Assembly (NCBI GenBank): GCA_032718475.1
Contig: JAUCBJ010000341.1
Span: forward strand, 1 to 64,000
Length of the DNA: 64,000 nt
Reading direction: 5' to 3'
From: Nemertoderma westbladi
Lineage: Eukaryota; Animalia; Xenacoelomorpha
Under the pieces are notes generated by a model that did not search any database, was not told the origin of the DNA, and saw nothing but the letters and a program-made list of their open reading frames with translations. Made by a program: the position numbers and the translations under genes. This document shows positions 17,613 through 57,204 of this stretch, in pieces; within the stretch, counting starts at the first letter, position 1; the number at the start of each line of letters is the position of its first letter.

Positions 17613-18062
17613 GACGGACGGACGGACGGACGGACGGACGGACGGACGGACGGACGGACGGACGGACGGACGGACGGACGGACGGACGGACGGACGGACG
17701 GACGGACGGACGGACGGACGGACGGACGGACGGACGGACGGACGGACGGACGGACGGACGGACGGACGGACGGACGGACGGACGGACGGACGGACGGACG
17801 GACGGACGGACGGACGGACGGACGGACGGACGGACGGACGGACGGACGGACGGACGGACGGACGGACGGACGGACGGACGGACGGACGGACGGACGGACG
17901 GACGGACGGACGGACGGACGGACGGACGGACGGACGGACGGACGGACGGACGGACGGACGACGGACGGACGGACGGACGGACGGACGGACGGACGGACGG
18001 ACGGACGGACGGACGGACGGACGGACGGACGGACGGACGGACGGACGGACGGACGGACGGAC
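17613..18062. repeat. (GGAC)n microsatellite, ~450 bp; (TA)n at ~17326-17388
   Basis: Direct reading. Confidence 0.97.
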
Positions 18063-18069
18063 TTTGTAT

Positions 18070-19082
18070 ATTTTTACTTGGTACTTTACTGGCCCTTCCC
18101 ATAGAACTCTCATGGAAAGATTACCGAAAGATCAGGTATATCAAGTAAGAGAATGGGAAGTTGAGAGCAGTGAGTTAGACGATCCAACTGAGGGAACACC
18201 ATACTCCTCAGATAACGACGATATCCACCAACTCTTTGACGAGGAGAATACCATTGATCTCCTTAAGGAAAACGAGACTTGGCAAAACCAAGTGAACTTA
18301 TGTCAGCTCCTTCGTCCATCAGAACGAGACGACTATAACGACGAACTGAATGACGTCATTGAACGTTATAATGCCAAAACTCGGGATGAACACGCCGTAC
18401 GATTCTTTACTCAAGAGGCTGTAGAGCCCAATTCCTACGATAAGGCCCTATCGATAGAAGAAGAAAGAGCCAAGCAGATCCAAGAGACAACTACACGTTT
18501 TCTTAAAGATCAAGGTAGATATGAAATCGGTCTACCTTTCCGAAAGCGAGAACCAAAGTTCATAAACAACAGACCCTTGGCGGAGAAAAGAATCGCTCAA
18601 CTACATCGACGCCTTACGGCAAATTCTTCAGCTAAAGAAATGTATCAAACGCAGTTGAAGAAATTTATTAGCAAGGGATATGCGGAGCGAGTACCGGAAG
18701 AAACACCTATAACTGAGAGAACGTATTATTTAACTCACCATTACGTTCCCAAACCCGGTAAACCCCATGAGGTACGAGTAGTGTTTGACGGCTCCGCCCT
18801 CTACATGGGCCAATCCCTTAATTCCGAATTGTTACCAGGACCTAACTTACTCCAATCCTTGTTGGGAATACTCTTAAAATTACGACAATATTCAATCGCT
18901 TTCGCCTCAGATATAGAAGGCATGTTCTTACAAGTCAAGGCGCTGGATAGGGATCGAGATAGCCTACGATTTCTGTGGTGGCCTGAAGGAGACCTCAACC
19001 AGAAACCGGTGGAGTACTGGATGACCATCCAGGCTTTTGGGATAATCTCAAGCCCTTCAAACGCCTGTTCAGTGGTGCGCAC
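18070..19082 (+). pseudogene. Bel/Pao copy A, pol 5' part (post-protease linker and RT N-half), interrupted by copy B
   Basis: YEIGLPF, YYLTHH, RVVFDGS, SLNSELLPGPNL, ASDIEGMFLQV, FG..SSP are Bel/Pao RT motifs; the frame resumes at 42528 on the minus strand. Confidence 0.9.
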
Positions 19083-20336
19083 TGTAAAAGCTTCTGTGGG
19101 ATGTAACTGGCCCTTTTGCTTCGCAATCCAGTTTCCCCCCTAGGCGCTGGAATACTCTAAAAGGCTCTATAACCATATATATATTCCCCTCGCCCGCAAG
19201 GTACCGTTATAGGTGTTTTAACGGACATAAAAGTCATTCTGCTATATACGTGTTTTGGCGGACATGGTAAGGCAAAAAACCTGCAATGCACCAAATACCT
19301 TTCACAGCTTAGCCGTGATGATTCATATTACGACATCTAACAGCTGGTTGCTGACATGGAAACAGCCATTGGCCACATGGTTCTTTGTTTAGCTTAAGCC
19401 AATCAGAGCGATTTCTTCTGTCGATGTGGAGCTTTCGGCCGATCATACTAGGAGTGTTCAGTCTTACTGTTTTGGTGATACTGTTGTGTTATTGCTATCT
19501 AGGCCAGGAACACCGGCTCTAGAGTCAACTCGGTTTCATACTTTAGAAGAAACATTAGTAGGCTTAAATTATAGAGCGTATAACCGTTATCTTATCTAAT
19601 CATATCAACTGATCGCAATTCAGTTTTACATTATCGGTTCAATATACATTATTATACTGCTATTTACTATTGTTTGGTTGAATATTATTTGGAGAACATT
19701 TATAAAGAACCCAAATTTCCCAATTTTCTTGATACACTACAGGTTAGAGAGACGGGTTATATATAGCGATTGCGACTTATATTATTGTGTATGTAGTGAA
19801 TTTAATGCTATTTGATAAGCACTACATTGGTCCGTTGCTGTTCTCTTTATATATGATAAAAATCATTGACGGTCGGCAAATTAGTGGGCAGTATTGTATG
19901 TTACCGGTAGTGTGCATGATTGTGACTGATAACTAAGCATTTCCTAAAGAATGCGCCTCATACGTGAATCTTAAGCCTTACCGACTTGCCGTTGTGATTA
20001 GTATAAGTCATATCTCTGTTTACCTAGATAGAGCGCCACGTCCTAAAGGAACTGTTAATATTTCCCGAAAGTGAATAATATTAGTCAGAAATTATTTATT
20101 AACGATCAATCGAATAATACAATACAGTAAGCTTACACTGCAATAATAATCTAAGCCCTCAGAATCCAGCCCCCCGGGTATATCCAGCGGGTGAATGGAC
20201 GCGCACTAGGCTGGCTTCTGCTAATGTTGTGTTTATTGGTATTAAATATTTGTCATCTTCTAAAGTCTATTTATAAACCAAAAGACATATAAATTTTGGC
20301 AGGTTAAACTGCTAAAGGTCTTCAAAAGCGCGTACA
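19083..20336 (+). repeat. 5' LTR of copy B (1254 bp)
   Basis: TGTAAAAG...CGCGTACA; matches 32043-32509 plus the reverse complement of 42529-43310. Confidence 0.93.
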
Positions 20337-20384
20337 ATAACGGTTATTGACTTTATTGCAGTAAGCAATAAAGTTGAAAGTACC

Positions 20385-21280: not shown

Positions 21281-22569
21281 GTTTATGCGATTATTCGCAA
21301 CATTCATGTCCCCAAGTTTATTCCTACAGTAATTGTGTTTGTTACACATACCGTTATAGTTAAATTAACCCCGGTACTACACGGGCTGCTTGGCGTAGGA
21401 CAAGACTGGTGATTTTGTGCACCGGTCACTCCAGCAGATGCCGTGGTTCTTTTAACTGTTCAAGTATATTTAACTACTGATTATTTGTTGTACCAGTGCT
21501 TGTACCTAATTTAGGGTTTAGTGTACAGTGCTTTCCGAGGTAATTAGTGTGTAGGCAGTATATTTGTGTTGTAAAGTGGTTAATAGGCACGCTGGATCTG
21601 GTAGTCCGCGGTAATTAACTTCTAGGTAGGAACACTCCGTGATATATAACGTAGTACCTATAGCGATACGGTTATAGGTCGTCAGGCGGTGGTATTTTCC
21701 TATCTGGACAGTGCAATATATTTACTACTACTTATTATTTCAAATACCGTAGTACCCTGTCCGTTGTAATAACCAGAATTCTAACCCTTTGTTAGGCTGG
21801 TTTGTAGACTTCCTGTAAAATTACCCTAAAAAATTCGTACGTAATATTTTTGTTGTGTTTAATTAGAGAATTAATCTCACCCGTATCGTAAGTAATTTGT
21901 AGTATTAAGTAACTTAGGTAAATTAGAATTATCTGTTTTAGTGTCAAATAAATAGCACTTCACTGAGAGCGCACAGCTTCTGTGTAGTGACCCCCCAGAA
22001 ATAATAACATTTATTTCAAATATTGACAAAACCCTTTTAAACGGGTATATATATATTATAAATCAACTCAAACGATTTATAAATAGTAGGCCTGCCATAC
22101 AACAACTAGGTCTCAAAATCAGTTGGACTACTGCTTAAATAACGGTAACAAAGTAAGTTAAAGTAACCAAGTAACCCTAAAATATTCAGAAATTCAATTA
22201 TTCTAAAATAATTGACATACCGGTATTTACCATAGGCTTATTATATTTATTTCTATAAATTTGAGCTGAAATCATACCGGTATTCTGTAATTAATTCTAG
22301 TTCATAATTATACTTATATATATTATAAGTGTAAGCTGTATACCGGTATTCACGATAGGCCTATTATATATTTATATATATTTGTGCTAAATTTATATAC
22401 CGGTACTCTGTGACAAAACTAGTTTACAATACTTATATATATTATAAGTGCATACCGGTATTCTAATCTACTGCAATAAATTACTGGTACTAGGCCAACG
22501 GTCATACTGAATTACTAGTCTTGCTTTAACTGTAACTATAGCAGTAAGCATTCAACTGTATAGCTAAAC

Positions 22570-25500
22570 ATGTCTGACACTCAGCAAAACCTGTCAGACA
22601 GTCTAATCGATACAACCATCTGTGACACAGATAGGAGTGTGGAGCGATTAAGAAAGGAGTTCAGCTCACCTCCTACTGAAAGAAAAGTCATCCCTCCAGT
22701 AGTGGTATCGGACCCTAAGCTAATCCAACACCGTAGGTCTATCATCGGCACTCGGGCCCAAGTCAAACGGAACCAGGAAGCAGCTGTCCCACAGCAGCAA
22801 CAGCCTAGTCAAAAAACTTGTTCCCAGCGATCCGATAGCTCCAGTAGTTCGGATACTGTCGAGCTGACCCCCGAACGCGGATTGCAGATGGCAGCTAAAG
22901 CCTACTCGGACCCCCTTCTCACCCTTCCTGCCGCAGTGCTAACTACTATATTGATTGCGGTGGAGGAACATCAAGCCGATTGGGCAAGAAATAAGCGAGC
23001 GACCCAAGATAATTATGCGGGATACGCCAGGGAAGAATTGATGTCTATTGTCGAGTCACAATGGAACTTTCCCGGACCCGGACTCCCGTTAGATCTGTCC
23101 GAGGCTACTTGGGAAGATATACACAGGATGGGAGTGGCTAAAGATACGATGGATCCAGCTGTTTGGAAGAGGTCGGCAGCAGGATATGTGCAGGGATTCT
23201 TCTGCTCCTTAGAGCGATTAGAAGAACAACTGTTTCGACAACCCCAAGGACCTCAAGAGCAGGAAGAACTGCTATATCAAGTACGCGAAAGAACCCTACG
23301 CATTCGACTAATCCTATCAGCTTTTGAGGAAACTTCCAAAAGAAGACAGGACACGTCGCTGCAAGTTGCTGTCAAAACTTGGTTCCAGCGGGTAGGTCTC
23401 CAAGTACAAGAAACAGACCAGTGGAAATCCCAGTTGTCTGAGAGACGAACCTATGATGAACCAACCGATGTCACCCTTCCTCAAGTGGAAGGCGAAGAGA
23501 CCGCAGAGAGACCACGAACGAGAGACGCCATCGACATTTATCTGTCCGACTATCAGCGATTCCTAGGAGACGAAGAGTTGAGGAGACGGCTGTCTGGACT
23601 TTCCCCTAATAGTGAAGGAACCCAGCGTGTGTTAGACTCAATCGATGCTGAGATGTTAGCTGCTAACCAAGCTGAGTTTGATGAAAAACTCCGCCTCACT
23701 AGAGTCCAAGAAGAACAAGTAAAGAAAAGACGGATAGAGGAACAAAAGGCGGCGGCTATGGCAGAAGCAGAAGTAGAAAGAAAGGCAGCGGCGGCAGAAG
23801 CAGAAGCAGAAAGAAAGGCAGCGGCGGCAGAAGCAGAAGCAGAAAGAAAAGCAGAAAAGGCAGCGGCGGCAGAAGCAGAAGCAGAAAGAAAGGCAGCGGC
23901 GGCAGAAGCAGAAGCAGAAAGAAAAGCAGCAAAGGCAGTGGCAGAAGCAGAACGGAGAGCCTCTGAGCAGACTACCCAACTGGAGTTGGAAAATCTGCAA
24001 GAGACGCAAGACAACATAAATAAACAGTTAACTGCTAGTCAAATGCAGATGATGAGACGATCTACTCCCAAACGCCAGGGATACACATCATCGGAGGAAA
24101 GCGAAACCACCGATCCTGAAGGCAGAGGAAATAGATCTCGTCTAAGCAGGCGTAGAAAAACATCTCACCGTCACAAATTGCCTGATTTGCCCCCAGCTGT
24201 TAGAAGACAGCTAGCTAGCACAGACTTAGGCAGTACGGAACCCGCATATCAAACTATTCAGGTCAAAAGACTCCCTACAATAGTTGATGAGCCTGAAATA
24301 ATTAGGCCTGTCGTTCCCAAAGTCACTTCTGTGTTAGAGACCCCTGTACTTCCAGAGCTTAACTCTAAATTCCCTTTACATAGTACTACACTGCCTGTAC
24401 CCGGTAGAACAGTCCAAGAGAATATCCCTGTCCTGATAGCAGAGAGAGAAATCAAAGATTTGTCTCCCGTCGTCCAGCGTCGGCCTGCCACAATGTTGGC
24501 GACTCCCGCTTCGGCGGTCGAGTGGGTAGAGGAGGGACGGCGGGGGATGAATCTCCTGCTCGGACAGATGCAGGAGACTGTCCACCAACTTAAGGGAACA
24601 GTAAGAGCAGAGTTGCAAGAAGTGCAGCAAAGTATTGCGCTAGAACGCGACAAATTAGTCAATATCCAAAAGGGGATACCAATACCCCCTGTAAAATTGT
24701 GTCAACCTGTCAGGTCTGAAGTATTACATGCGCAAGGTGTGGAGCCTACACGCATCTATACTGCTAGTGAAGTAGAAACTCCTATAGCAAACCCTATTAA
24801 GGGTGATTATAGACCTGTTGTTAATGATATTCCCTATAGACCTGATAATGATCCGAGAAATTTATATACCGATAATTCGATATTAAATAACACGATGGCC
24901 CAAGAAAGCTTTACGCGTCAGATGGCTAGAACAGAAGCTTGCCAAGCGGTTAAAGTGGGAGAGATCGTCAAATTCAATGGAGATGAGATGAAATGGTTAC
25001 CTTTCAACGAATATTACAAAGACAGCATACAGAACTCTGTGCTATCTAACGGAGAGAAACTTAGGTTCCTCATCAAGTGCTTGGAAGGACCTCCCAGGTT
25101 AATGGCGTTAAAGTTTATTGGACATCCAGATGGATTAAGACAAGTTTGGGATACATTAAACGTCAGGTATGGTAACAAGGATAACATAGCTAAGTATTTG
25201 TATGCAAAATTAGTAGCCCCCCGACACTTCCTTAGTAGCGGGATTATAGAGTTTTCCGATGAAATTCAGGAGATCTGTAGACAATTGGACTGGTTAGGTA
25301 AGTCTCATGAATATCAGAGTTCAATGGTTATTGGAGCCATAGTCTCTACTTTACCCAAGGGTGGAGTATGTACATGTTGGGACAAGAAAGTGTTGTACAT
25401 GAATGAACAACAACGACGAAGTCCTACCATGGCTGATCTCATGTCCTTCTTAGATGGTGAAGTAAAACTACAACTCATCAAGCAGTCCAGAGAGAAAACA

Positions 25501-27237
25501 TCGGAAAATAAGGTAAGTGAGAAACCCGCTTCTAGGAGAAGAGTAACACCGGTGTGTTACACTGACGACGGCGAAAGCCAAGCCTCTCAAGAAGAGGACA
25601 GCGGGAAAGACACAGATCGATCTTACTATGTTGACAAAACCTCAAAAGACGTAAGTAAATACAAGTCTCGAATCAGTGACAGGAGAGAACAGGTAACAAC
25701 AACTCCTCCTACGTCTCCTAAGAGAATTCACGGAAGAAAGCCCGAAGAAAGAACGATAGTGCATAACGTTACCCAAGGTAAGGTGAGTAACATCAAACCA
25801 AAATGTGCGCTGTGCGACGGGCCCCACCGTTTGAGTGCATGTGCTGAATTTCTAAAGAAATCCCCTGTAGACAGACGTACAGTCCTGTGGAGTAAGCGGT
25901 TATGCTATAATTGCCTCAGATCAGGACACCAACGGCGAACCTGTTACTCCGACGTAAAGTGTGCAAAGTGTGGCGCGAAACATCACATCTTGTTACACAG
26001 TGAGTTCGAACGAGACAACCCGAGTCAGGTAAGTGAGCCCAAACTACATGTCCAATTCAGTGATGTAAATGACACTGATCAAGAGTCTGAGATGGAAGGA
26101 TTCTATACTGACGAATTCTCCGACGCCAACGAATCCTGTTACCTAATAAATACCTCAGTGTATCGAGCACTTACTTATGAAAAGGACACCGACAATGAGT
26201 TCCCCCCAACTACTTTTGCCAGACAACCGTCTTGGAAAGCTCCAACTTCCAACGTAGGAATCAGAGAATTTCCTGTAGTGCAGGTAAGAGTTCATGGTCC
26301 TAACAATAGTTACATAGTGAACGCCCTCCTTGACTCCGGCAGCACAGGAACATTCATCGATCAAGAACTAGCCGAAGATATTTTTGCTGGACAACCCAAA
26401 TTCCGGACTAAATTGAATATGTCAGGAATTATGCAGGTTTGGAAATCTACCCTAACGGTAGACTACTATGTAGGTGTGTTGTCCACCCCCCAGGATAAAT
26501 TAGGAGCACAAGGTATAAGGTCGGTAAAAATGGTGGCTATAAAGAACTTTGCTGCTACCCAAGCAGACCTTTATAATTGGGACGAGGATGAGAGCATCCA
26601 ACATCTTAAGATACCTCGATTCCAGACAGATTATCCTGGAGTGCAAATACTCATCGGCCAAAACGCGCATGAGGCGCTCGAGACATTGGAGAAACGGCCT
26701 GCTCAACCGCAGCCACTACAAACCTATGCGGTAAGAACTAGAGTAGGTTGGTACTTCACTGGCCCTTCCTGTAGAACTCTCAAAGAGAGATTACCTCAAC
26801 AACAGGTATACCAAGTAAAGGAATGGGAAGTGGAGAGCAGTGATGTGGACGATCCAACTGAGGGAACACCATACTCCTCAGATAATGACGATATTAACTC
26901 CAATGTAGATCAATGGAGACATTGCCTTGGGACGATTAATCCAGCCGACATCGCTTCCAGAGGAGCAACTCCTCAAGAACTGATAGATACTCCAGGCTGG
27001 TTAGGTGGATCCGACTTCTTAAGTAAAGAAGAAGAAGAATGGCCTCCTCATCTTACCACGGCAGAGATTAGACAGGCCAAGGGAGCGGAGAAAGTAACAC
27101 AACAACTAAATCGCCCAGCTAGTCGTTTATGTTTACTGGAAAGAGACCGAAAACTGTCCGGAAACTATGGAAGGCAAGATACTCTTCCTACGACCACTTC
27201 CCTAATCCGACAAATATCTAGGGACTCCATAACGTAA
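22570..27237 (+). CDS. Bel/Pao Gag-protease polyprotein (1555 aa) with in-frame deletion of RT, most of RNase H and integrase
   Basis: Capsid-like FNGDEMKWLPF..EKLRFL..L..RYG; three Zn knuckles (CALCDGPH..C, CYNCLRSGH...C, CAKCGAKHHILLH); aspartic protease LLDSGS; junctions SSDNDDI|NSNVDQWRH and GAEKV|TQQLNRP. Confidence 0.92.
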   Translation: MSDTQQNLSDSLIDTTICDTDRSVERLRKEFSSPPTERKVIPPVVVSDPKLIQHRRSIIGTRAQVKRNQEAAVPQQQQPSQKTCSQRSDSSSSSDTVELTPERGLQMAAKAYSDPLLTLPAAVLTTILIAVEEHQADWARNKRATQDNYAGYAREELMSIVESQWNFPGPGLPLDLSEATWEDIHRMGVAKDTMDPAVWKRSAAGYVQGFFCSLERLEEQLFRQPQGPQEQEELLYQVRERTLRIRLILSAFEETSKRRQDTSLQVAVKTWFQRVGLQVQETDQWKSQLSERRTYDEPTDVTLPQVEGEETAERPRTRDAIDIYLSDYQRFLGDEELRRRLSGLSPNSEGTQRVLDSIDAEMLAANQAEFDEKLRLTRVQEEQVKKRRIEEQKAAAMAEAEVERKAAAAEAEAERKAAAAEAEAERKAEKAAAAEAEAERKAAAAEAEAERKAAKAVAEAERRASEQTTQLELENLQETQDNINKQLTASQMQMMRRSTPKRQGYTSSEESETTDPEGRGNRSRLSRRRKTSHRHKLPDLPPAVRRQLASTDLGSTEPAYQTIQVKRLPTIVDEPEIIRPVVPKVTSVLETPVLPELNSKFPLHSTTLPVPGRTVQENIPVLIAEREIKDLSPVVQRRPATMLATPASAVEWVEEGRRGMNLLLGQMQETVHQLKGTVRAELQEVQQSIALERDKLVNIQKGIPIPPVKLCQPVRSEVLHAQGVEPTRIYTASEVETPIANPIKGDYRPVVNDIPYRPDNDPRNLYTDNSILNNTMAQESFTRQMARTEACQAVKVGEIVKFNGDEMKWLPFNEYYKDSIQNSVLSNGEKLRFLIKCLEGPPRLMALKFIGHPDGLRQVWDTLNVRYGNKDNIAKYLYAKLVAPRHFLSSGIIEFSDEIQEICRQLDWLGKSHEYQSSMVIGAIVSTLPKGGVCTCWDKKVLYMNEQQRRSPTMADLMSFLDGEVKLQLIKQSREKTSENKVSEKPASRRRVTPVCYTDDGESQASQEEDSGKDTDRSYYVDKTSKDVSKYKSRISDRREQVTTTPPTSPKRIHGRKPEERTIVHNVTQGKVSNIKPKCALCDGPHRLSACAEFLKKSPVDRRTVLWSKRLCYNCLRSGHQRRTCYSDVKCAKCGAKHHILLHSEFERDNPSQVSEPKLHVQFSDVNDTDQESEMEGFYTDEFSDANESCYLINTSVYRALTYEKDTDNEFPPTTFARQPSWKAPTSNVGIREFPVVQVRVHGPNNSYIVNALLDSGSTGTFIDQELAEDIFAGQPKFRTKLNMSGIMQVWKSTLTVDYYVGVLSTPQDKLGAQGIRSVKMVAIKNFAATQADLYNWDEDESIQHLKIPRFQTDYPGVQILIGQNAHEALETLEKRPAQPQPLQTYAVRTRVGWYFTGPSCRTLKERLPQQQVYQVKEWEVESSDVDDPTEGTPYSSDNDDINSNVDQWRHCLGTINPADIASRGATPQELIDTPGWLGGSDFLSKEEEEWPPHLTTAEIRQAKGAEKVTQQLNRPASRLCLLERDRKLSGNYGRQDTLPTTTSLIRQISRDSIT
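23745..23955 (+). repeat. 33-bp coding repeat (AAAAEAEAERK)n in gag
   Basis: Direct reading; predicted charged helix. Confidence 0.85.
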
Positions 27238-28125
27238 TAACATATGGAGTGGGCGTGTGACTATATCATTTTATATTTGTTTTATTTTATATTTATGTAT
27301 GTATTATTATGTAATTTTATTATAATCGTTTTCTTTAATTTTATTTAGTAGAATGTTATTTTAGTGATTATTTAGTAGATTAGTGCAATATATTAGTGTT
27401 TATTACGTACGTAATTACTTATCATATATATTTAGTGCGACGGCGAGAAATAATTATTTTTCTCTTTCCTTACTGTCCGTATCATATTATAAATACGTGA
27501 CTACAGTAAGATGAAATGTCTGTACTTATTAAAGTACAATAAAGCCACTACTATATTCAAGTATTATTGGTAGGCAGAGTATTAGGAATGCAAAGTTCAG
27601 ATCCTCGTGTCTCGGCTAAACCAAGCTCTGGGTAGACCTTGGAAACGACTTGCCTCTTCACACTGACATTGCTTCTACCTCTTGCTCTTCTACCTTATAT
27701 TAAATAATACATATAGTAGCGTGATGTCCCTCTAACAGTAGCGTAAAACGCAAATAAATCTGTTAAACCTTTTGACCATCTGTAATTCTAGTCGATTAAG
27801 ATATCGCGGCACCCACCGATATACTTGAAAGACAAATTCTAGAATCAGTGGTTAACGTCCCCAGACAAGTTCTGGAATAAATCGGTGCCCATCTTAAATA
27901 TTAATTTAATATTTATTAAAATCTGTAAAATTCAGATCCGTTAACAATTCTAGTCGATTAAGATATCGTAGCACTTACCGATACTCTTAAAAGACAAATT
28001 TCATAGAATTAAGGATCCTATGTCCCCAGACCTGCTCTGGAATCAAATTGTGTCAATTTTAACATCAAATAATAAAATTCACGGGAATAAATTTAAAGTC
28101 ATATTTTTTAAATGAATTTCATAAA

Positions 28126-28980
28126 TTGTCATTTTATACGGAGATTCGGAGATATCTCGATATTACCAGTCAACAGAATCTAGAAACTCGATATCCTCAA
28201 GGTATACATCATGACCGCATGGTAGAACTCAAACGGCTCTATTTCACTATGATGTATCTTACCGCCGATCGTCCACTACCTGTTATCCCGGATAGTTTTG
28301 AACAAATGGAAGAATATTGCAAAACTGGAGAACGTTCACCCGCGTTTCCTCTACAGGACGTACGTCTTTGGTATTATTGTGACGAATGCCCTAGACCCAA
28401 CCAACAAACGGAAAGACACAAACATCTGCGGAGACGTTGCGCTAAACATAGTTTTACGCGTTACACTTACGGGAGTTTCGAGCGAAACCTGTTCGACATA
28501 CCACCCACGATCGCTCGTCTTAAACGATCACTGAATAAACCCATGATCAGAGTTCCGGAATACTCGGTCAGGCCTCCTCATTCCCTAGTGAGACCTCAAA
28601 CTCTTGATCCTAACAGTATCACTGATCCTCCCGAACTATATTCTCTGTTCAAAGACTTAGTGTTACCCGAACAATTAATCGGTGGTGCTCCGGTAGTGGG
28701 TTCGTTAGACATCCGCCCATCCTACTTAGCCGGATTGGGACGCGGGCAGCTAATATCGCCCTTTGATCCTTACAATCGTCCAGGATTAAACCCGATGCAA
28801 CCCGCCACGGAAGTAGAGGAGAGCGTTATAAGAAACGCTTTAGACGCCATTCGACAGAAAATCGGAAAGGGAACACAAGATTGTTTAGAGAAACGTAAAT
28901 TACAACAACAAGTCCAATCGGTGAAGGAGTTAGCCTTGCAAAGTTCGATAGGGAAATCCAAAACCTCGAGGAAGACATAG
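28126..28980 (+). CDS. Accessory gene of copy B, upstream part (N-terminally truncated; 1-nt frameshift near 28940 relative to the downstream part)
   Basis: Homologous to remnants at 35410-35830 and 51927-52560; WYYCDEC..H.H...C..H putative Zn site; the 29124 frame stays open upstream (KFDREIQNLEEDIELGR...). Confidence 0.7.
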   Translation: MSFYTEIRRYLDITSQQNLETRYPQGIHHDRMVELKRLYFTMMYLTADRPLPVIPDSFEQMEEYCKTGERSPAFPLQDVRLWYYCDECPRPNQQTERHKHLRRRCAKHSFTRYTYGSFERNLFDIPPTIARLKRSLNKPMIRVPEYSVRPPHSLVRPQTLDPNSITDPPELYSLFKDLVLPEQLIGGAPVVGSLDIRPSYLAGLGRGQLISPFDPYNRPGLNPMQPATEVEESVIRNALDAIRQKIGKGTQDCLEKRKLQQQVQSVKELALQSSIGKSKTSRKT

Positions 28981-29123
28981 AGCTTGGACGCACGTATTCT
29001 CTACAAGAATTTTTAGATGAACGCTTACAGAGACAAGCGGAAGAAATTCTACTCGAGGAGAAACACACGAAACTGGAAGAGAGAGAAGAAGCCGCTTTAG
29101 CCCAACCGGAAGCTCAAATCCTC

Positions 29124-31964
29124 ATGACGGACCTCTACTCTAAAACCGTTCGTCATCCCTCGATGATTCCACATTTCGGGGACAAGCTCTTCGCGACGAT
29201 ACAACCTCAACCGGTTGATATCAGTACAGGATCGCCAAATCTTATCGCTGACGCCCCTATGTTACAGCGTCCGCCGATCGAGGCCGCTCGTGTTGACGGT
29301 ATACTCGTCGAACCTCCGGACAATCGAGCGGATCTTGTCCGTCGTATGGTACACGATGTCAACATACGCGCTAGACCTTTACAGAACTCGTTTTATGGGA
29401 TTAAAGACCACCCTTATTACGTTAATCTGACTCAATATTATATGGTAAAGCCTGAAGACCCGACACATAATTTAAAGTTTCTACCACTAATAAATCCTCT
29501 AGACATTGTCGAACTCGAACAATTGCAGAAACATCTGGATCAGTTAGTAAAGGTAAACTCATTTAGAAAACCATATAACATTTCTCGAATCGAGAAAGAT
29601 ATAGAACCTCCTTATAATCTCGATGGATTTATTAAAACTCGATTAGTCCATTGGAATCTAGATGTATTATTTGAAGAAGAGAAAATACAAAGATATGGAA
29701 ATGTGGAGACGTATACCACTCGGCACATGAAGTATAGTGATCTCCCTGACGCTAACCAATGCGCCACCTTGTGGCATCCAGTAGGGATGACCCTAGAGAA
29801 CGCCACCAAGGAGTGGAATGAAACTCTTAATGTTATTGAGATGTATGGAGTTGTCACCTACGATAATGAAGGTAGCGTTCCGGTCGGAGAACTAGGAACT
29901 ACGCGCATGATTCACATACGCGGATTAGCTGGTTCTACCCACGTGTTTACTCGAGCGTGTTCCGACGTGATTGATTATTCCTTTGAAACTCTCACCGAAA
30001 CACAAAAGAATCTCCGACATGGACAATTCGAACTCGCGCAGCGTTACGTCATTGACACCGAACGCAAACCGGCCATGGGCATCGATGGATCGATGTTACC
30101 CCAGCCCGTACTCAAGATGTTGTTCAACGAAAGAATCCTTAAAATCGGCTCAGCTGTTTATGGAGATCTCCAAAACGACTTTCGGAATATGGAGAACATT
30201 CCATACCCTTTCGTTGATACTCAGCTGATTGCTCCCTGGGCAGAAGGTCGAGGTTTCTTCCGCACTATGTATGCTAATACGCCTAGCAACATTACCAAGG
30301 TGCAACGAACTTCCATCGGACATCTTGCCTTTCAGGAATACGGATGGAATTTCAAAGTCGGAAATCCCATTAACTATCAACAAGTATACGGAGATCATTA
30401 TTCTCGATTGTACTTTGATGGACCATTAACCGCACCTGGCGCCGTGTATAGCTTCATGAGTGTTCCACTCCGTCCCTCCTTAGCTATATACACGATCTTT
30501 GAAAACACCGCACTTGCCGGTTGGCTAGCCGATGTGTGCAGTCGTACTATACGCGCCCATCCATTAATACTTGGGACCAAACTCGCTAAGCTAGATGAAC
30601 ATAATAAATTCATCCGTTTCGAATGTTTCCGGCGATTTTTAACCCCGTTCCGCAACGTGGATAGCCAATTTAAAGACCGCGCTTTGACCAAACTCAGCCT
30701 AAGAAACTCAGCTGCAGAGAAGTTGGATAGCGCTGGATTCGCCATTTTCAAAGAGATTTGTATATCGAACTTGCACTCCTCTGTTATACAAAGACCTCGA
30801 ATCCCCACAGGTTATTCTGTCGTGGAAATTCAGACAATAGGTCCACCTGAAGAGACAGACGCGCCCACTTCAGCTATGCACTTGGAAGACGAACCAATAT
30901 GTCTAGAATCTGAAGAGATTCAGCCTATGGCGCCCCGGAACAGCGACAACGATTACATCATAGAATGGTATCAAGGTCCACAGTGTCTCACTGCGTACGA
31001 TTATCGACATGCCAACTATGTTTCTAGGCAACGTTGTCGGTTATGCGCATCGAGAGACCACGATACGCCCATGGACACCAACGTCCGCTGTTCCTATTTC
31101 CAAGAACAACCGACTATGGAAATTTATTGCGCATATTGCAGACTCAATAACTTGCATATCTTTGCGGTTTGCCCTCAATTTATGACTCAATGTCACCATT
31201 GTCAACTAAAGGGACATGCTAGTTTCGACTGCCCTTTTAATCACGATTTGGAAAGCGTAGATGAAATGATCACACTACGTTACATCAGAGCTTGGGAAGC
31301 GAACGCTGATTTACATTGTGATTCGCGCCATCGCTATTATCCCAGACGCGCTTACGAAGGAGTTTATGCGTTCCATCCTTATCTATTCGCTTCGGTTGAA
31401 CAGAAATCACGCATATCAAGTTACGAGCTACTGAAGCGCGTTGGAGAATGTATTTCAACCAAATTCGTACGCAAATTTCTCAGGAATGTTAATCCTAGCG
31501 ACCTTCATTCCTATAACTTAATCAATTATATCCGTCAGGATCCGGACTATGGAGACTTGTTTGTTAACTCACACCCCGAGTTACAGGAAGTATATCGACG
31601 GCCTTATGAATACCGAGCCCGCGAACGCGAGTTGGAAAGGACCATTAAACCCCGGAGGTTTCTAACTGCCTATGGTCCACCCACGGCCCTCGTTCAGACC
31701 ACTCGTAAAGGACCCGTAAGAGCGGCTGTCTTGAAACGAGCTCTCAAAGCCGTTAGACCCCTCTCCCCGGACGTTGATGTCAATCAACCCGGTACTTCGA
31801 CTGGCGGATACACCGACCATAATCCTACACCCTCTGATGCAATCATATTGCACCCTTCACCCAGGAGTTATAGCCCTCCTTGTAAAGTGGCTCGCCCCAA
31901 AGAGAAAAGGACTCTGGCTAGCTTTAAGAAACTGCGTAAACGTCGTCCGCGCAAGAAAGACTAA
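29124..31964 (+). CDS. Accessory protein: DEDDy (WRN/EXD/Mut-7-like) 3'-5' exonuclease domain, CCHC zinc knuckles, basic NLS-like tail
   Basis: ExoI VVTYDNE (D247/E249); ExoII LPQPVLKMLFNERILKIGSAVYGD (D348); FVDTQLIA; SIGHLAFQEYG; ExoIII PLRPSLAIYTIFE (Y456/E460); CAYCRLNNLH....C and CHHCQLKGHASFDC; KKLRKRRPRKKD. Confidence 0.75.
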   Translation: MTDLYSKTVRHPSMIPHFGDKLFATIQPQPVDISTGSPNLIADAPMLQRPPIEAARVDGILVEPPDNRADLVRRMVHDVNIRARPLQNSFYGIKDHPYYVNLTQYYMVKPEDPTHNLKFLPLINPLDIVELEQLQKHLDQLVKVNSFRKPYNISRIEKDIEPPYNLDGFIKTRLVHWNLDVLFEEEKIQRYGNVETYTTRHMKYSDLPDANQCATLWHPVGMTLENATKEWNETLNVIEMYGVVTYDNEGSVPVGELGTTRMIHIRGLAGSTHVFTRACSDVIDYSFETLTETQKNLRHGQFELAQRYVIDTERKPAMGIDGSMLPQPVLKMLFNERILKIGSAVYGDLQNDFRNMENIPYPFVDTQLIAPWAEGRGFFRTMYANTPSNITKVQRTSIGHLAFQEYGWNFKVGNPINYQQVYGDHYSRLYFDGPLTAPGAVYSFMSVPLRPSLAIYTIFENTALAGWLADVCSRTIRAHPLILGTKLAKLDEHNKFIRFECFRRFLTPFRNVDSQFKDRALTKLSLRNSAAEKLDSAGFAIFKEICISNLHSSVIQRPRIPTGYSVVEIQTIGPPEETDAPTSAMHLEDEPICLESEEIQPMAPRNSDNDYIIEWYQGPQCLTAYDYRHANYVSRQRCRLCASRDHDTPMDTNVRCSYFQEQPTMEIYCAYCRLNNLHIFAVCPQFMTQCHHCQLKGHASFDCPFNHDLESVDEMITLRYIRAWEANADLHCDSRHRYYPRRAYEGVYAFHPYLFASVEQKSRISSYELLKRVGECISTKFVRKFLRNVNPSDLHSYNLINYIRQDPDYGDLFVNSHPELQEVYRRPYEYRARERELERTIKPRRFLTAYGPPTALVQTTRKGPVRAAVLKRALKAVRPLSPDVDVNQPGTSTGGYTDHNPTPSDAIILHPSPRSYSPPCKVARPKEKRTLASFKKLRKRRPRKKD

Positions 31965-32042
31965 CTGTTTAGAGTATTTACGTATATTAGAAACTGTGAT
32001 TTTGTATATTTTATAGACTCAAATCCCATTTTCTGGGAGCGG

Positions 32043-32509
32043 TGTAAAAGCTTCTGTGGGATGTAACTGGCCCTTTTGCTTCGCAATCCAGTTTCCCCCC
32101 TAGGCGCTGGAATATTCTAAAAGGCTCTATAACTATATATATATTCCCCTCGCCCGCAAGGTACCGTTATAGGTGTTTTAACGGACATAAAAGTCATTCT
32201 GCTATATACGTGTTTTGGCGGACATGGTAAGGCAAAAAACCTGCAATGCACCAAATACCTTTCACAGCTTAGCCGTGATGATTCATATTACGACATCTAA
32301 CAGCTGGTTGCTGACATGGAAACAGCCATTGGCCACATGGTTCTTTGTTTAGCTTAAGCCAATCAGAGCGATTTCTTCTGTCGATGTGGAGCTTTCGGCC
32401 GATCATACTAGGAGTGTTCAGTCTTACTGTTTTGGTGATACTGTTGTGTTATTGCTATCTAGGCCAGGAACACCGGCTCTAGAGTCAACTCGGTTTCATA
32501 CTTTAGAAG
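32043..32509 (+). repeat. 3' LTR of copy B, proximal part
   Basis: Near-identical to 19083-19549 (two substitutions seen); preceded by the PPT. Confidence 0.93.
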
Positions 32510-34963: not shown

Positions 34964-36322
34964 CTAGTCTTTCTTGCGCGGACGGCGTTTACGCAGTTTT
35001 TTGAGGCTAGCAAGAGTCCTTTTCTCTTTGGAGCGAGCCACTTTACTAGGAGAGCTGTAACTCCTGGGTGAAGGGTGCAATACAATTGCATCAGAAGGTT
35101 TAGGGTTACGGTCGATGTCTCGTCCATTTCGATATGCTTCTCCTCGAGCTGATTTTCCTCCGCTTATCGTTGGATGCATTCGTCCAAAACTCTTGCAGAG
35201 AATAGGGTCGTCCAAGTTCGATATCTTCTTAGAGATTCTGAATTTCCTGATCGAACTGAGATAAAATTAATTCGTTTACCGCTTGGACTTGCTGCTGCAA
35301 TTTACGTTTCTCTAAACAATTGTAGGTTCATTTTCCGATCTTTTGACGAATAGTGTCCAACGCATTTCGTACAACTCTTTCCTCCGCCTCGGTGACAGGT
35401 TGTATCGGGTTAAACAGGGACGATGATACGGTTGAGTGGCGATATTAGATGTCTGCGTCCCAATCCGACTAGGTAAGATGGGTGAATATGTAGGGAGCCC
35501 ACAACCGGAGTGCCACCGACTAACTGTTCGGGTAACACTAGATCTTTGAACAGTGAGTACAGTTCGGGAGGATCCATGATACTATTAGGATCAAGAGTCT
35601 GAAGTCTAACTAGGGAATGAGGAGGTCTGACCGAGTATTCTGGAACTCTGATCATAGGTTTATTTAAGGATTGTTTGAATCGAGCGAGCGTAGGTGATAC
35701 ATCGAACAAGTTTCGCTCGAAACTCCTGTAAATATAGCGAGTAAAACCGTGTTTAAAGCAACGTCTCCGCGGATATTTATGTCTTTCCGTTTGTTGGTTG
35801 GGTCTTGGGCATTCATTGCAATACTACCAAAGACGCACGTCTTGTAGGGGAAACGCGGGTGATATTTATTCGGTTTTACAATGTTTCTCTCAAGAATTCC
35901 AAATATACGTTGGAGTTACCGCGTTTATCCGGTTCTTTAACGTCTTCTCTTTCAAGTCGATTTCGAATAGAATTTTCGCATTCGATTCTCAATTTATCGT
36001 TCCGACTCCGCTGGGTATGATATTTAAATAGGACCATTTCCCTTTCGGTGTCGATATCGTCCGTATCGTGTAAATCGATAGGATGGCCAGTAGTTAAGAA
36101 GTCCATATACGTACCATTACAATGCGTATAGCGAACAGTGAATTTTCGATAGTCCAATTCACGCGTAAGTTGCTCCTGGGACATCGGCGGTTCGATATAA
36201 CGACCATCGTCCTCCGTAGTAGTTGGACTAGCATCGCTGCGTATCAAGCTATCAACAAACGCTTGCAACGGTAGAGTATATTTCTCCCTGATACCAAGAT
36301 CATCTTCTATCAACTGAGTCAT
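34964..36322 (-). pseudogene. Accessory gene remnant of copy A (keeps the N-terminus MTQLIEDD..., lacks the exonuclease and knuckle region)
   Basis: ORF pieces 35410-35709 and 34964-35215 match ORFs 28126 and 29124; 35876-36322 matches the copy C remnant; internal deletion, TAA and frameshifts. Confidence 0.85.
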
Positions 36323-36638
36323 AGCTGCTATATGAGTTTATCAATATTATAATGAGTTTATATTTAGGCTAGCGAGCGTCGCTGCCTACCCCTCTCGGCC
36401 CCCGGACAGAGCAAGATCCTCAGCGCTGGTGTACTTTCGCCGATGTGCCTGTCGCCAACGTTGTAGCTGCACAACGACCACAACAACCAGCGCGAGTTAC
36501 TCCACCGTCCGTCCCAAAGGCTTAGATTTACTTCAGGTTCTTACTGGAGAGTTAGGGCTACTTTCACAATTGCGACTCGCTACTGTAAACACACTTTAGT
36601 AGTAACATTCACCTATATACGCACAAATTCCACACAAC

Positions 36639-39565: not shown

Positions 39566-41098
39566 CTACTGAGCTGGGGAGTCCCTAGATGTTTGTTGGA
39601 TTAGGGAGGTGGTCGTGGGAAGAGTATCTTGTCTTCCATAGTTTCCGGAGAGTTCTCTGTCTCTTTCCAGTAAACATAAACGACCAACTGGGCGATTGAG
39701 CTGCTGTGTCTCGAAGACAATTCCCGGTTTCTTGAAGTTACGTCGCATGACGACGAGTTCTACCGATCGCACCAAACCGTCATCCGAGATGTGAGTCTCG
39801 ATGATACGACCTGTCTGCCACCTCTTACGTGGAAGATCTGAATCCACAATAAGGACCATGTCTCCAGCGCTGACGTTTTCTTGCTGCGCAAACCACTTCG
39901 TTCGAAGTTGTAGCGTGGGCAGATAGTGTTTTTCGAAATGGTCAGCGAAATGACGGGATAACAACTGCATGAGTTGCCAAGTTTGCCGGCAGTATTCGTC
40001 TCCGTCTGTGATTTCCGATTGTGGGAGCATGGCTACAGGTTTCTTCAGTAGGAAGTGCGCGGGTGTTAGCGCTTCCAGGGAATCGGGACTCGATGAGACT
40101 GGCATAAGCGGTCTCTCGTTGAGATAGGTGGCGATTTCCTCCATTAACGTCCGCAAAAGTTCGTCGGTGAGATACGCACGGCACGGCACTATAAAGTGAA
40201 ATGCGGTCTTCACGCTTCTGATTAATCTCTCCCAACTTCCTCCCCACCAAGGGGCGTCGGCGGCGTTGAAGGTCCAGCTAGACGCTGTTAACCTTAGCTG
40301 ATCGTCCACCTGTCTTTGGTTCCAATCGTTGACGTAAGCTTTGATTTCATTGTTGGCACCAATGAAGTTTGTTCCCTTATCAGATCTCATCGTGTTACTA
40401 GTTCCAAAGCGAGCGATCTGTCGTCGTAAGCTTAATAGGAAGCTGTTGGTAGATAAATCGTTCACCATATCGAGATGGATAGCTCTACAAGTCATACAAA
40501 CAAAGATGACACACCATCTCTTGACTATAGTCCTAGCACGATATACTTCAATAGGGCCAAATAAATCTACACCGGTATTAGTAAAGGGTGGTTCATAGAA
40601 GCTTACTCGTTCCCTAGGTAATTCTGCCTCTCGCTGTGTTAAAGGCCTACTGAATGCTTTCCTACAGGGTATGCAGTTCCTAAGAACTTGGTTCAGAGCT
40701 CTACGGGGTTTATAAAAATAATAGCGAGTTCGAATTTCGCTAAGAACTCGTTCTCTACCAGCATGATAAAGTTTGCTGTGAACATATACAATCATCTTGA
40801 CTTGTATCTCAAGATTTCTAATGAGTATGGGAAACTTAGTGTCAAAGGATAATGGAGCATTCGTTAATCTTCCTCCAACACGTATCAACCCATCTATCAT
40901 TGTGCTAGAGAAACGATCCCTTAAGCGCATCTGTGGATTTCTCAACAACAGGAAATACTTATCGGAATCCTCATAGCATTGCAGGAGTCTCAGCATCTGC
41001 TTGTTGGTTTCTTCATGCTCCTGATAACTGATCTTCTCCTTCAGAAACCTGTCGGATATCTTATATTTGGGTAGATCTTTAACAACATGGACCTGCAC
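39566..41098 (-). CDS. Bel/Pao integrase (HHCC, DDE, DUF5641-like tail), frameshifted from the upstream pol
   Basis: H....HAG...CIPC; GVDLFGP; SDKGTNF; APWWGGSWERLIRSVK; LNERPL; LTPAHFL. Confidence 0.93.
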   Translation of the reverse strand: MQVHVVKDLPKYKISDRFLKEKISYQEHEETNKQMLRLLQCYEDSDKYFLLLRNPQMRLRDRFSSTMIDGLIRVGGRLTNAPLSFDTKFPILIRNLEIQVKMIVYVHSKLYHAGRERVLSEIRTRYYFYKPRRALNQVLRNCIPCRKAFSRPLTQREAELPRERVSFYEPPFTNTGVDLFGPIEVYRARTIVKRWCVIFVCMTCRAIHLDMVNDLSTNSFLLSLRRQIARFGTSNTMRSDKGTNFIGANNEIKAYVNDWNQRQVDDQLRLTASSWTFNAADAPWWGGSWERLIRSVKTAFHFIVPCRAYLTDELLRTLMEEIATYLNERPLMPVSSSPDSLEALTPAHFLLKKPVAMLPQSEITDGDEYCRQTWQLMQLLSRHFADHFEKHYLPTLQLRTKWFAQQENVSAGDMVLIVDSDLPRKRWQTGRIIETHISDDGLVRSVELVVMRRNFKKPGIVFETQQLNRPVGRLCLLERDRELSGNYGRQDTLPTTTSLIQQTSRDSPAQ

Positions 41099-41103
41099 CG
41101 ATG

Positions 41104-42528
41104 TCAGCGCAGCGGAGCGGTATCACTATTGGTCTTCGTCCCGGAGTAGTAATGATGAAAACATTGTTTTAAATATGTAACGGCCTTACAGAGCCGATTC
41201 CAGGAACTGCAGTGATGTATCGCTCTCTGCAGGAGAGGTGAGAGTCCTTGCGAGACGTCTGGTATTCCAGATTTCCAATCCTTCTGACGGATTTCCACAA
41301 CAGACTTATTTATGGATGTGGGTTTCAGATCCAAAGCGTCGTCTCCGGAAGTGTGTAGTACAGACAGATCTACCATAGGTTTAAATAACTTCGATTTACT
41401 CGCCCGAGTTTTGGGTTTGACTTTCTCCGCTCCCTTGGCCTGTCTAATCTCTGCTGTAGTAAGATGAGGAGGCCATTCTTCTTCTTCTTTGTAGAGGAAG
41501 TCGGGTCCACCTAACCAGTCTGGAGTATCAACCAGTTCTTGTGGAGTTGCTCCCCTGGAGGCGACGTCTGCTGGATTGATCGTTCCGGGGCAATGTCTCC
41601 ATTGATCCATCTTCGTGCGACTAAGAATAATGGCTACTCTGTTGGTAACGAAGACGCTGAACTGACAGACTTCATTGGTTATATACTCCAACACGAGTAA
41701 AGCATCGGTCCAATAGACAGTTTTCTCCAATGGATAATCGATCTGTTCTGTTACATTCCGGCCGATGGCGGTAGCGTATAGAGCCGCTTTTAACTCCGCT
41801 CGAGGAACTTTCAACTTGTTGTTTATCAATGCCTTAGAGGTAACCAAGGCGACTTTGATTCCATCCGGAGTTTCCACTCTTAGGTAGGCTACTATACCCA
41901 TTCCCATATCGCTGGCGTCTCCAAACACATGGAGTTGATAGGAATACGTAGGGAGAACATGACCAAAATATGAACGGGAAATTATAAAGTTCTCGATGGC
42001 TGGTAGAGAATCTTCCCATTTCATCCACTTCTTTAATAATTCCCCCTTAAGTGGATTGTCCCATGAGTGGTTTTCAAGCCACATTTGTTGTACTAAACTC
42101 CGAGCAATCAATATAACTGGGCTAATAAATCCCAATGGATCGAAATAAGTGCTCAGGATACTTAAACAAATCCGTTTAGTCCGAACTGGATTATCTCGCT
42201 GTTTTAGCTGGAAAAACAGGATATCTCTCTCTGTGTCCCATTTCAAACCAAGTGTCTTGGTTTCTGGAAGATCATCTTTGATTAGATCTAGGTCTTTCGC
42301 TCCTCGATCTTCTACCGGGATCGACTCCAGAAACTCACGGGAGTTGCTGGTGAATTTAGTTAATCGAAATCCACCTCTTTTTAAGCACTCTACCGTTCCT
42401 TTAGCGACATCAATGGCTTCTTCGACTGATGGAAGGGACTTTAGATTGTTGTCCATGTATATATCCCGTTTGATGTTGTCAATCACCTCTTTAGAGAAGG
42501 CTTCCCGGTTGTCATCCGCAGTGGTGCG
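41104..42528 (-). CDS. Bel/Pao RT C-half and RNase H (Pao 'peptidase A17' region)
   Basis: YMDN, GGFRLTKF, KTLGLKWD, FDPLGFISP, LHVFGDAS, PRAELKAA, YWTD, NPADVASRG. Confidence 0.92.
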   Translation of the reverse strand, partial: RTTADDNREAFSKEVIDNIKRDIYMDNNLKSLPSVEEAIDVAKGTVECLKRGGFRLTKFTSNSREFLESIPVEDRGAKDLDLIKDDLPETKTLGLKWDTERDILFFQLKQRDNPVRTKRICLSILSTYFDPLGFISPVILIARSLVQQMWLENHSWDNPLKGELLKKWMKWEDSLPAIENFIISRSYFGHVLPTYSYQLHVFGDASDMGMGIVAYLRVETPDGIKVALVTSKALINNKLKVPRAELKAALYATAIGRNVTEQIDYPLEKTVYWTDALLVLEYITNEVCQFSVFVTNRVAIILSRTKMDQWRHCPGTINPADVASRGATPQELVDTPDWLGGPDFLYKEEEEWPPHLTTAEIRQAKGAEKVKPKTRASKSKLFKPMVDLSVLHTSGDDALDLKPTSINKSVVEIRQKDWKSGIPDVSQGLSPLLQRAIHHCSSWNRLCKAVTYLKQCFHHYYSGTKTNSDTAPLR

Positions 42529-43310
42529 TGTACGCGCTTTTGAAGACCTTTAGCAGTTTAACCTGCCAAAATTTATATGTCTTTTGGTTTATAAATAGAC
42601 TTTAGAAGATGACAAATATTTAATACCAATAAACACAACATTAGCAGAAGCCAGCCTAGTGCGCGTCCATTCACCCGCTGGATATACCCGGGGGGCTGGA
42701 TTCTGAGGGCTTAGATTATTATTGCAGTGTAAGCTTACTGTATTGTATTATTCGATTGATCGTTAATAAATAATTTCTGACTAATATTATTCACTTTCGG
42801 GAAATATTAACAGTTCCTTTAGGACGTGGCGCTCTATCTAGGTAAACAGAGATATGACTTATACTAATCACAACGGCAAGTCGGTAAGGCTTAAGATTCA
42901 CGTATGAGGCGCATTCTTTAGGAAATGCTTAGTTATCAGTCACAATCATGCACACTACCGGTAACATACAATACTGCCCACTAATTTGCCGACCGTCAAT
43001 GATTTTTATCATATATAAAGAGAACAGCAACGGACCAATGTAGTGCTTATCAAATAGCATTAAATTCACTACATACACAATAATATAAGTCGCAATCGCT
43101 ATATATAACCGTCTCTCTAACCTGTAGTGTATCAAGAAAATTGGGAAATTTGGGTTCTTTATAAATGTTCTCCAAATAATATTCAACCAAACAATAGTAA
43201 ATAGCAGTATAATAATGTATATTGAACCGATAATGTAAAACTGAATTGCGATCAGTTGATATGATTAGATAAGATAACGGTTATACGCTCTATAATTTAA
43301 GCCTACTAAT
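42529..43310 (-). repeat. 3' LTR of copy B, distal part, inverted
   Basis: Reverse complement of 19554-20336; followed on the minus strand by TSD CGCAC and the RT continuation. Confidence 0.93.
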
Positions 43311-57138: not shown

Positions 57139-57204
57139 CGTTTTTAATATTTATGATCAATCATTAAGTTTAAATAGCAGGAAAGAAATACATATCGATT
57201 AAGT

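Follow-up and report, generated by a model that had tools for sequence, protein, structure and literature searches.

A probable DEDDy-group exonuclease domain with zinc knuckles encoded in the env position of a Bel/Pao retroelement family from Nemertoderma westbladi

What would a long terminal repeat (LTR) retroelement gain from a third gene that occupies the position of env but encodes no membrane protein? This question is raised by a 64,000-nucleotide (nt) stretch of DNA from Nemertoderma westbladi (assembly GCA_032718475.1, contig JAUCBJ010000341.1, positions 1 to 64,000 of the forward strand; hereafter the window), which contains three related LTR-element copies (A, B, and C). In element B, read on the + strand, a 5′ LTR is followed by a gag-protease open reading frame (ORF), a long AT-rich spacer, a third ORF (ORF3), a purine tract, and a 3′ LTR, with ORF3 lying in the env position between the remnant of pol and the polypurine tract (PPT)-like sequence. 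Below, we describe ORF3 as a gene of a multi-copy family whose central domain very probably has the DEDDy-group 3′-5′ exonuclease fold, and we weigh what such a protein could do for the element.

The main frame of ORF3 encodes the protein P0001 (the product of ORF 28899-31964), although the motif residues named here are numbered from the Met codon at 29124. A preliminary description of the locus had assigned the catalytic motifs to Asp247, Glu249, Asp348, Tyr456, and Glu460, and these residues are found at the expected codons (29862, 29868, 30165, 30489, and 30501, respectively). The Cys/His cluster with CCHC knuckles that it reported consists of three motifs: a variant C-x2-C-x4-H-x10-C knuckle starting at 31035, a variant C-x2-C-x5-H-x4-C knuckle starting at 31128, and a canonical C-x2-C-x4-H-x4-C knuckle starting at 31191. 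Approximately 160 residues separate the exonuclease (Exo) domain from these knuckles, which match zf-CCHC_3 with E 0.0068, short of the cut-off of that family, and retroviral nucleocapsid structures with E 0.0014 when a two-sequence profile is used; in the ESM Atlas the best score for the knuckle region, 0.85, is a lead at most. The stop codon lies 70 nt upstream of the purine tract and directly follows a basic tail, as had been described. A 19-residue hydropathy scan detected no membrane segment, with maxima of 1.10 in the main ORF, 1.21 in the N-terminal part in B, and 0.49 in the N-terminus in copy A. This result agrees with the earlier view that ORF3 is not env, and we rejected that identity. 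Within the N-terminal part, a C-x2-C ... H-x-H ... C cluster at 28370-28440 is also present in copy C, matches no family, and is possibly a further zinc site. Upstream, the AT-rich spacer between pol and ORF3 harbors an imperfect direct repeat of ~150 base pairs (bp) at 27733-28050, present in A and C as well, which could serve ORF3 expression as a promoter or an RNA element.

The ESM Atlas, an RNase D hidden Markov model (HMM), and a profile-profile match with hhalign agree on the DEDDy-group fold that the preliminary description had proposed. In the ESM Atlas, residues 290-620 adjoin PF01612 clusters from giant viruses, with a score of 0.93 and 167 shared features (25 of 30 matches). The NCBIfam RNase D HMM matches the ExoII stretch with E 0.0044, far short of its cut-off, and E. 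coli RNase D aligns to the same stretch. The reference profile for hhalign was built from 87 WRN/RNase D-type domains, retained from 149 domains in 221 loci. Against this profile, the domain of element B alone gave 82.6%, compared with 10.4% for the best of 40 shuffles, while P0001 paired with its only detected homolog, P0004, gave 94.2%, compared with 1.8% for the best of 40 shuffles and no more than 0.4% for six other real stretches. On the strength of these comparisons, which were required because motifs read off a single sequence cannot be told from chance, we consider the DEDDy fold very probable.

P0004 was the single match (E 1.3e-6, 30% identity) in a phmmer search of 1.84 billion representatives. 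It is a 648-amino acid (aa) protein from a 9449-nt ENA contig, known here from the protein alone, and has the same layout as P0001: an ExoI D-x-E, an ExoII Asp, a W-x3-L-x3-Q-x2-Y-x3-E ExoIII, and then three knuckles and a basic tail. On its own, P0004 matches PF01612 with E 0.2, with ExoI aligned in the HMM. Word-based searches found no homolog of P0001 residues 200-900 among 5539 candidates, only P0004 itself among 7995 candidates when P0004 was the query, and none among 1725 candidates with the two-sequence P0001/P0004 alignment. Pattern matches for related loci yielded no confirmed case among 289 viral, 30 metagenome, and 63 prokaryote candidates, five viral and 12 metagenome loci found with an ExoII-based DNA pattern were rejected as chance matches, and a tblastn search of phage gave one match with E 4.

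Within the domain, the ExoII Asp is recovered in every comparison. The ExoI D-x-E is placed by the pair with P0004 and by 31 of 32 references, and all four positions line up in 31-32 of the 32 references in seven of ten alignment settings. Despite their 30% identity, P0001 and P0004 both have an acid at all four sites. Neither has the canonical ExoIII Y-x3-D; in both, the Tyr is present and the Asp is replaced by Glu, giving Y-x3-E. Judging from this conservation, we lean towards an active two-metal site in which Glu takes the place of the fourth Asp.

Several results weigh against reading ORF3 as a nuclease. Pfam recognizes no family in ORF3 or in the excised domain, sequence searches of the PDB with P0001 or with the P0004 domain returned chance matches only, and single-sequence AlphaFold prediction of ORF3 was unusable, with a predicted local distance difference test (pLDDT) value of 31. 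The hhalign match is limited to 103 columns around ExoII and includes neither ExoI nor ExoIII, the placement of which rests on the alignment with P0004 and on a chosen subset of references; in alignments A2, A3, and A4, ExoI or ExoIII falls in a different register, and references of the Bacteroidetes type also shift the motifs. No match of ORF3 to a DEDDy family reaches a curated cut-off. A structural model was folded on alignment A5, which comprises 31 of the 87 reference domains picked for their aligned motifs (one of 32, in which ExoI was mis-picked, was dropped). This model has pLDDT 63.7 and a predicted template modeling score of 0.66, with the highest values around ExoII and two long low-confidence insertions, and it matches the structures of RNase D, WRN, Nibbler, EXD1, TbRND, Egalitarian, and Rrp6 with Z from 15.5 to 12. 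Because the references were selected for their motifs the argument is circular, and the model therefore shows compatibility with the fold only. Ranking of subgroups on this model produced near ties within ~1 Z, with Nibbler first in Foldseek and RNase D first in VIA-align.

Copy and selection counts for ORF3 were drawn from contigs of sequencing runs and cover the listed differences, as distinct from a codon model. ORF3 is at least partly present in six of the seven listed runs, which represent four studies and two organism labels, and in four of these runs 3264, 1109, 12, and 32 contigs lie over the nuclease domain, with identities from 99% to less than 90%. Across the nuclease-domain contigs no insertion or deletion is listed at 5%. 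Among the best-supported 40 of 164 differences in this domain, 35 are silent, where a fraction of 0.30 is expected (binomial P ~4e-14), and none of the five non-silent differences affects any of the five motif residues. These 40 differences correspond to a crude ratio of nonsynonymous to synonymous rates (dN/dS) of ~0.06, far from the value near 1 that the preliminary description had named as speaking against its proposal. Over a wider stretch, 20 of the 30 listed differences within the two ORFs are silent, with 10 listed differences outside these ORFs excluded and 1447 more lying beyond those listed. Between element B and copy C, silent codons outnumber replacement codons by 70 to 28 across the ORF3 N-terminal part and by 125 to 85 in gag-protease. 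ORF3 is thus a multi-copy family gene, with strong purifying selection acting on the nuclease domain. The silent and replacement counts exclude neutral drift of a one-off capture, and capture of a host gene on a single occasion was rejected because the gene is multi-copy, divergent, and selected, with an intronless frame.

Copies A and C had been put forward as the evidence that ORF3 belongs to the family, a claim of which one part stands. In both copies, a single frame runs from the last part of ORF 28063-28980 into the beginning of ORF 28899, and in all four of the listed contigs with long matches across this junction the length differs from that in B by a non-multiple of three. Element B therefore has a frameshift near 28,93x, either its own mutation or an assembly error, and the ORFs at 28126 and 29124 were once one, as had been proposed. 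The suggested N-terminal extension of ~150 aa agrees with copy A, which provides ~146 aa from its first Met, but copy C provides only ~74 aa. Summed lengths of 1416 aa with the N-terminus of A, or 1344 aa with that of C, fit the proposed ancestral protein of ~1400 aa. Approximately 920 nt at the 5′ end of the gene that are present in C are missing from B. In contrast, both A and C lack the sequence corresponding to 29085-31800 of B, a 2.7-kb deletion that removes the entire nuclease and knuckle region, and their remnants carry additional frameshifts and stops. They are therefore uninformative on the nuclease as a family gene and were rejected as proof of it; that proof comes from the sequencing runs instead. 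A and C are two insertions ~95% alike with a common loss of the nuclease, and their deletion junction is present in sequencing run X3 as well, indicating that a nuclease-less subfamily has spread. Directly upstream of the ORF3 frame of A, a TATA-like AT-rich stretch (36330-36420, - strand) that is absent from B and C gives a weak hint of an internal promoter.

The family belongs to the Bel/Pao superfamily, with Pfam domains and LTR anatomy in agreement as the preliminary description had it. The gag of B and C contains DUF1759 (E 1.4e-12 in B), and the pol of copy A contains Peptidase_A17 (E 8.7e-37), DUF5641 (E 4.2e-21), and Integrase_H2C2, giving gag and pol content of the Bel/Pao type in the order protease, reverse transcriptase (RT), RNase H, integrase. 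Element B has LTRs with TG...CA ends, a short target-site duplication, and a PPT.

DEDDy third genes are described for the bdelloid rotifer LTR elements Juno and Vesta and for the Penelope-like Athena/Terminon elements (PMC5408684, PMC6431247, PMC5718144), in line with the preliminary description. Like ORF3, the ORF in Juno, Vesta, and Athena lies downstream of pol, replaces env, has no membrane segment, and has apparently intact catalytic residues with one Asp-to-Glu change. By the published description, however, the rotifer motif is DEED, while Glu is at the fourth acid here, and the available text describes low-copy families with no activity data and does not contain the words BEL or Pao (PMC5408684). 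The ORF3 protein described here further differs from the rotifer ORF3 in its length of ~1350-1400 aa, its three C-terminal CCHC knuckles, and its strong purifying selection. The preliminary description named no DEDDy ORF for Bel/Pao elements, and our literature search, the reach of which did not extend to Repbase, subscription papers, or the supplement of the rotifer report, found none either. A term search of the main text of two papers for an exonuclease in Bel/Pao elements gave no matches (PMC12440569, PMC13524379), and in the available text of a third no such exonuclease was found, with one sentence citing the rotifer report (PMC6338049). What is new here is the Bel/Pao host superfamily, the D-E-D-E site in common with P0004, the combination of Exo domain and knuckles, and evidence of selection, which the rotifer report does not include.

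Outside retroelements, the closest design is that of Trypanosoma brucei RNase D, TbRND (PDB 7C42; Z 12.7), in which a DEDDy Exo domain is likewise followed by several CCHC knuckles. The knuckles of TbRND boost RNA binding and cleavage, and their removal nearly abolishes both (PMC7797062, in the text available). TbRND is a cellular mitochondrial enzyme with a canonical DEDD site and four knuckles close behind the Exo domain, whereas ORF3 has three knuckles ~160 residues away, and TbRND is a design analog of the ORF3 protein, not a demonstrated relative. The fold and order of motifs are also shared with cellular RNase D, WRN, Nibbler/Mut-7, EXD1, EXD2, Egalitarian, and Rrp6, and with stand-alone 3′-5′ exonucleases of giant viruses. 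Identity of the ORF3 domain to these groups is 10-18%, and none stands out as the donor subfamily. Dada DNA transposons also encode a DEDDy exonuclease, but as described in the portion of the report available, that domain is located inside a DDE transposase and has the four canonical residues (PMC3706591).

The reading that we favor, by analogy and with a probability of roughly one in three, is that ORF3 is an accessory RNA exonuclease directed against small-RNA silencing that protects copies of the family. In this process, the ORF3 protein would act as a 3′-5′ RNA exonuclease aided by its zinc knuckles, which, if they work as in TbRND, would bind single-stranded RNA and guide its 3′ end into the active site. 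Host small silencing RNAs and their precursors would be degraded or over-trimmed, the basic tail could have a nuclear or RNA-binding role, and the protein, to judge from the distribution of the gene, could act in trans to shield all family copies in the cell. Two points favor a small-RNA target: retroelements with unlike modes of replication repeatedly carry DEDDy genes, and copies without the gene have still multiplied. Retroelements of differing replication chemistry (Juno, Vesta, and the Penelope-like Athena) have gained DEDDy genes more than once, according to the available text of the rotifer report (PMC5408684), and these repeated gains point less to any single step of replication than to a pressure common to these elements, for instance silencing. 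Action in trans fits the nuclease loss that A and C have in common, the junction of which recurs in run X3. Four considerations weigh against this reading. Mature PIWI-interacting RNAs (piRNAs) are usually 2′-O-methylated at their 3′ end and resist such nucleases, which would leave only precursors or unmethylated RNAs open to the ORF3 nuclease. A diffusible, shared benefit is harder to maintain under strong selection than a benefit to the element's own RNA. The spread of nuclease-less copies is equally expected for any protein supplied in trans. Finally, in the available text of the rotifer survey, copy number was not clearly linked to the presence of such ORFs (PMC5408684). If silencing RNAs are indeed the target, ORF3 would represent an enzymatic counter-defense of an animal transposon. 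A larger claim, which we consider doubtful, is that large nuclease-plus-knuckle proteins with a D-E-D-E site form a Bel/Pao lineage of their own. They would then be the first transposon-encoded enzymes to suppress small-RNA silencing in animals, would be provided in trans to subfamilies without nuclease or pol, and would help one family to flood a genome. The combination of a high-copy Bel/Pao family, selection, and natural nuclease-less copies nearby makes the question testable.

Alternatively, ORF3 could be an active nuclease that trims replication intermediates of the element itself, in the most concrete form the 3′ end of a self-primer released from the 5′ region of the element RNA, or else the tails of genomic RNA or the ends of complementary DNA (cDNA), which we consider possible although not likely. 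After the 5′ LTR of element B no primer site of the transfer RNA (tRNA) type was found; the window contains no tRNA genes, and no Rfam match of note. Instead, the first 11 nt downstream of the LTR show perfect pairing with a segment of the LTR itself (Table 1). This pairing is matched or exceeded by 10 of 11,675 other internal starts, appears in both the minimum-energy and centroid folds, and is followed directly by a perfect 10-13 bp hairpin. Tf1 and Tj1 similarly have no tRNA site and have bases after the 5′ LTR that are complementary to an LTR segment (PMC4600332, PMC6317226), and self-priming, demonstrated for Tf1, is also implicated for elements of hosts ranging from fungi to vertebrates (PMC4600332). 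In the available text of these reports, such self-priming is a property of Tf1/sushi-type Ty3/gypsy elements and some plant copia lineages, whereas element B is a Bel/Pao element with one candidate site, recognized from sequence alone. Our literature search found no paper devoted to self-priming sites in Bel/Pao elements. Trimming of its own RNA would explain the strong selection on ORF3 and suits the resemblance of the knuckles to retroviral nucleocapsid, and processing of 3′ ends has been proposed for the rotifer ORFs (PMC5408684, in the text available). Against it, the primer site occurs once in the window, and the other three LTRs show just partial conservation of the LTR segment. Furthermore, Tf1 self-primes and is not known to have a third gene. 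Trimming of a self-primer, if true, would add a novel step to reverse transcription.

It is also conceivable, if unlikely, that the domain is a weak or dead DEDDy fold and that ORF3 acts like EXD1 or Egalitarian as an RNA-binding adaptor to export, transport, or package element RNA. Inactive DEDD derivatives occur in piRNA pathways, as noted in the available text of the rotifer report (PMC5408684). The Glu in place of the fourth Asp in both P0001 and P0004, the two long insertions in the domain model, and the presence of EXD1 (Z 13.1) and Egalitarian (Z 12.3) among the structural matches of the seeded model are consistent with such a role, for which the basic tail and knuckles are suitable. 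However, the four acidic positions and the Tyr are preserved at 30% identity and unaltered in the listed variation. Dead nuclease domains usually lose their catalytic acids. Action on DNA, for example to clear cDNA of wrongly added or untemplated 3′ bases ahead of integration or to proofread for RT, is improbable. WRN and the exonuclease domains of family-A polymerases match the seeded model with Z 14.3-14.7, close behind RNase D at 15.5, and the DEDDy domains of Dada have been proposed to process cleaved 3′ ends (PMC3706591, in the text available), but ORF3 is separate from pol, and an Exo domain with CCHC knuckles is an RNA-trimming design in the sole solved case, TbRND. Least probable of all is that the DEDDy likeness is partial or coincidental and that the protein has another fold or role: besides the lack of a Pfam match and the seeding of the model, P0001 alone scored 7.8 bits with hmmsearch, compared with 6.3 for the best of 200 shuffles, and 4-10% of shuffles reach the Atlas 0.9 level (with 167 shared features for ORF3 and 170 typical of true members), but four unseeded methods agree on the superfamily and on the stretch, P0004 independently points to PF01612, and the six other real stretches stayed at or below 0.4% in the same profile test.

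Element B itself is very young, as indicated by its near-identical LTRs and the flanking 5-bp target-site duplication at 19078-19082 and 42524-42528, and it interrupts the RT gene of copy A. Its pol remnants are 80-85% identical to copy A. Two in-frame deletions removed RT/RNase H and integrase while the reading frame stayed open, making element B non-autonomous. None of the three copies is autonomous, with RT missing from B and C and the RT of A cut by B.

Table 1 Features of elements A, B, and C in the window.
Feature	Position	Strand	Remarks
Copy A, first half of RT	18079..19082	+	interrupted by B
Element B, 5′ LTR	19083..20336	+	TG...CA ends, 1254 bp
Element B, LTR segment, candidate self-primer	19580..19590	+	11 nt; its exact reverse complement directly follows the LTR
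Element B, primer-binding position	20337..20347	+	does not start with TGG; pairs with 19580-19590
Element B, gag-protease ORF	22564..27237	+	DUF1759, zinc knuckles, aspartic protease; ends in pol remnants
Element B, ORF3, N-terminal part	28063..28980	+	homologous to C from 28152 onward; deletion of the 5′ start; no family match
Element B, ORF3, main frame (P0001)	28899..31964	+	1021 codons; 946 aa from the first Met at 29124
Element B, DEDDy-group 3′-5′ exonuclease-like domain	29826..30554	+	aa 310-552 of P0001
Element B, three CCHC-type zinc knuckles	31035..31232	+	
Element B, basic C-terminal tail	31887..31961	+	13 of 25 residues Lys or Arg; present in A and C too
Element B, PPT-like sequence	32035..32042	+	
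Element B, 3′ LTR, first part	32043..32509	+	2 mismatches in 467 relative to the 5′ LTR
Copy A, ORF3 remnant	34964..36337	-	retains N-terminus and tail; deletion of nuclease and knuckles
Copy A, rest of pol	39566..42528	-	Peptidase_A17, integrase H2C2, DUF5641
Element B, 3′ LTR, remainder	42529..43309	-	displaced and in inverted orientation; no mismatch and 1 gap over 781 aligned bases
Copy C, ORF3 remnant	51481..52946	-	deletion as in A

Over 9 bases, the two flanks of the B insertion (19070-19082 and 42519-42528) form an inverted repeat, which makes the insertion target a short palindrome. Relative to B, the segment 32510-43310, comprising the second part of its 3′ LTR and the 3′ half of A, is inverted, and a 452-bp tandem repeat sits at one of the breaks; either the inversion took place once B had inserted or it is an artifact of assembly. 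An 8-bp tandem array, along with an inverted 223-bp copy of RT sequence from A, separates off the 5′ part of this copy (17392-19078). B and C (22564-27237 and 54390-57150) have the RT/RNase H deletion in common despite ~12% divergence, and C and A have the ORF3 deletion in common, a mosaic of subfamilies that suggests template switching. In the gag of B, a 33-bp tandem expansion at 23718-23993 encodes a coiled-coil-like run of Ala, Glu, Lys, and Arg. A fourth LTR of the family, at ~5200-6489, is probably a solo LTR and is ~76-80% identical to the others. Finally, at 59689-63808 on the - strand, an 849-aa ORF has an Endonuclease VII-like N-terminal part and family-B DNA polymerase motifs recognized by eye, and is adjoined in AT-rich DNA by an ORF resembling TATA-binding protein (PF00352, E 4.3e-10). 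This region may be a Maverick/Polinton-like or large-DNA-virus-like insertion that carries a TATA-binding-protein-like gene.

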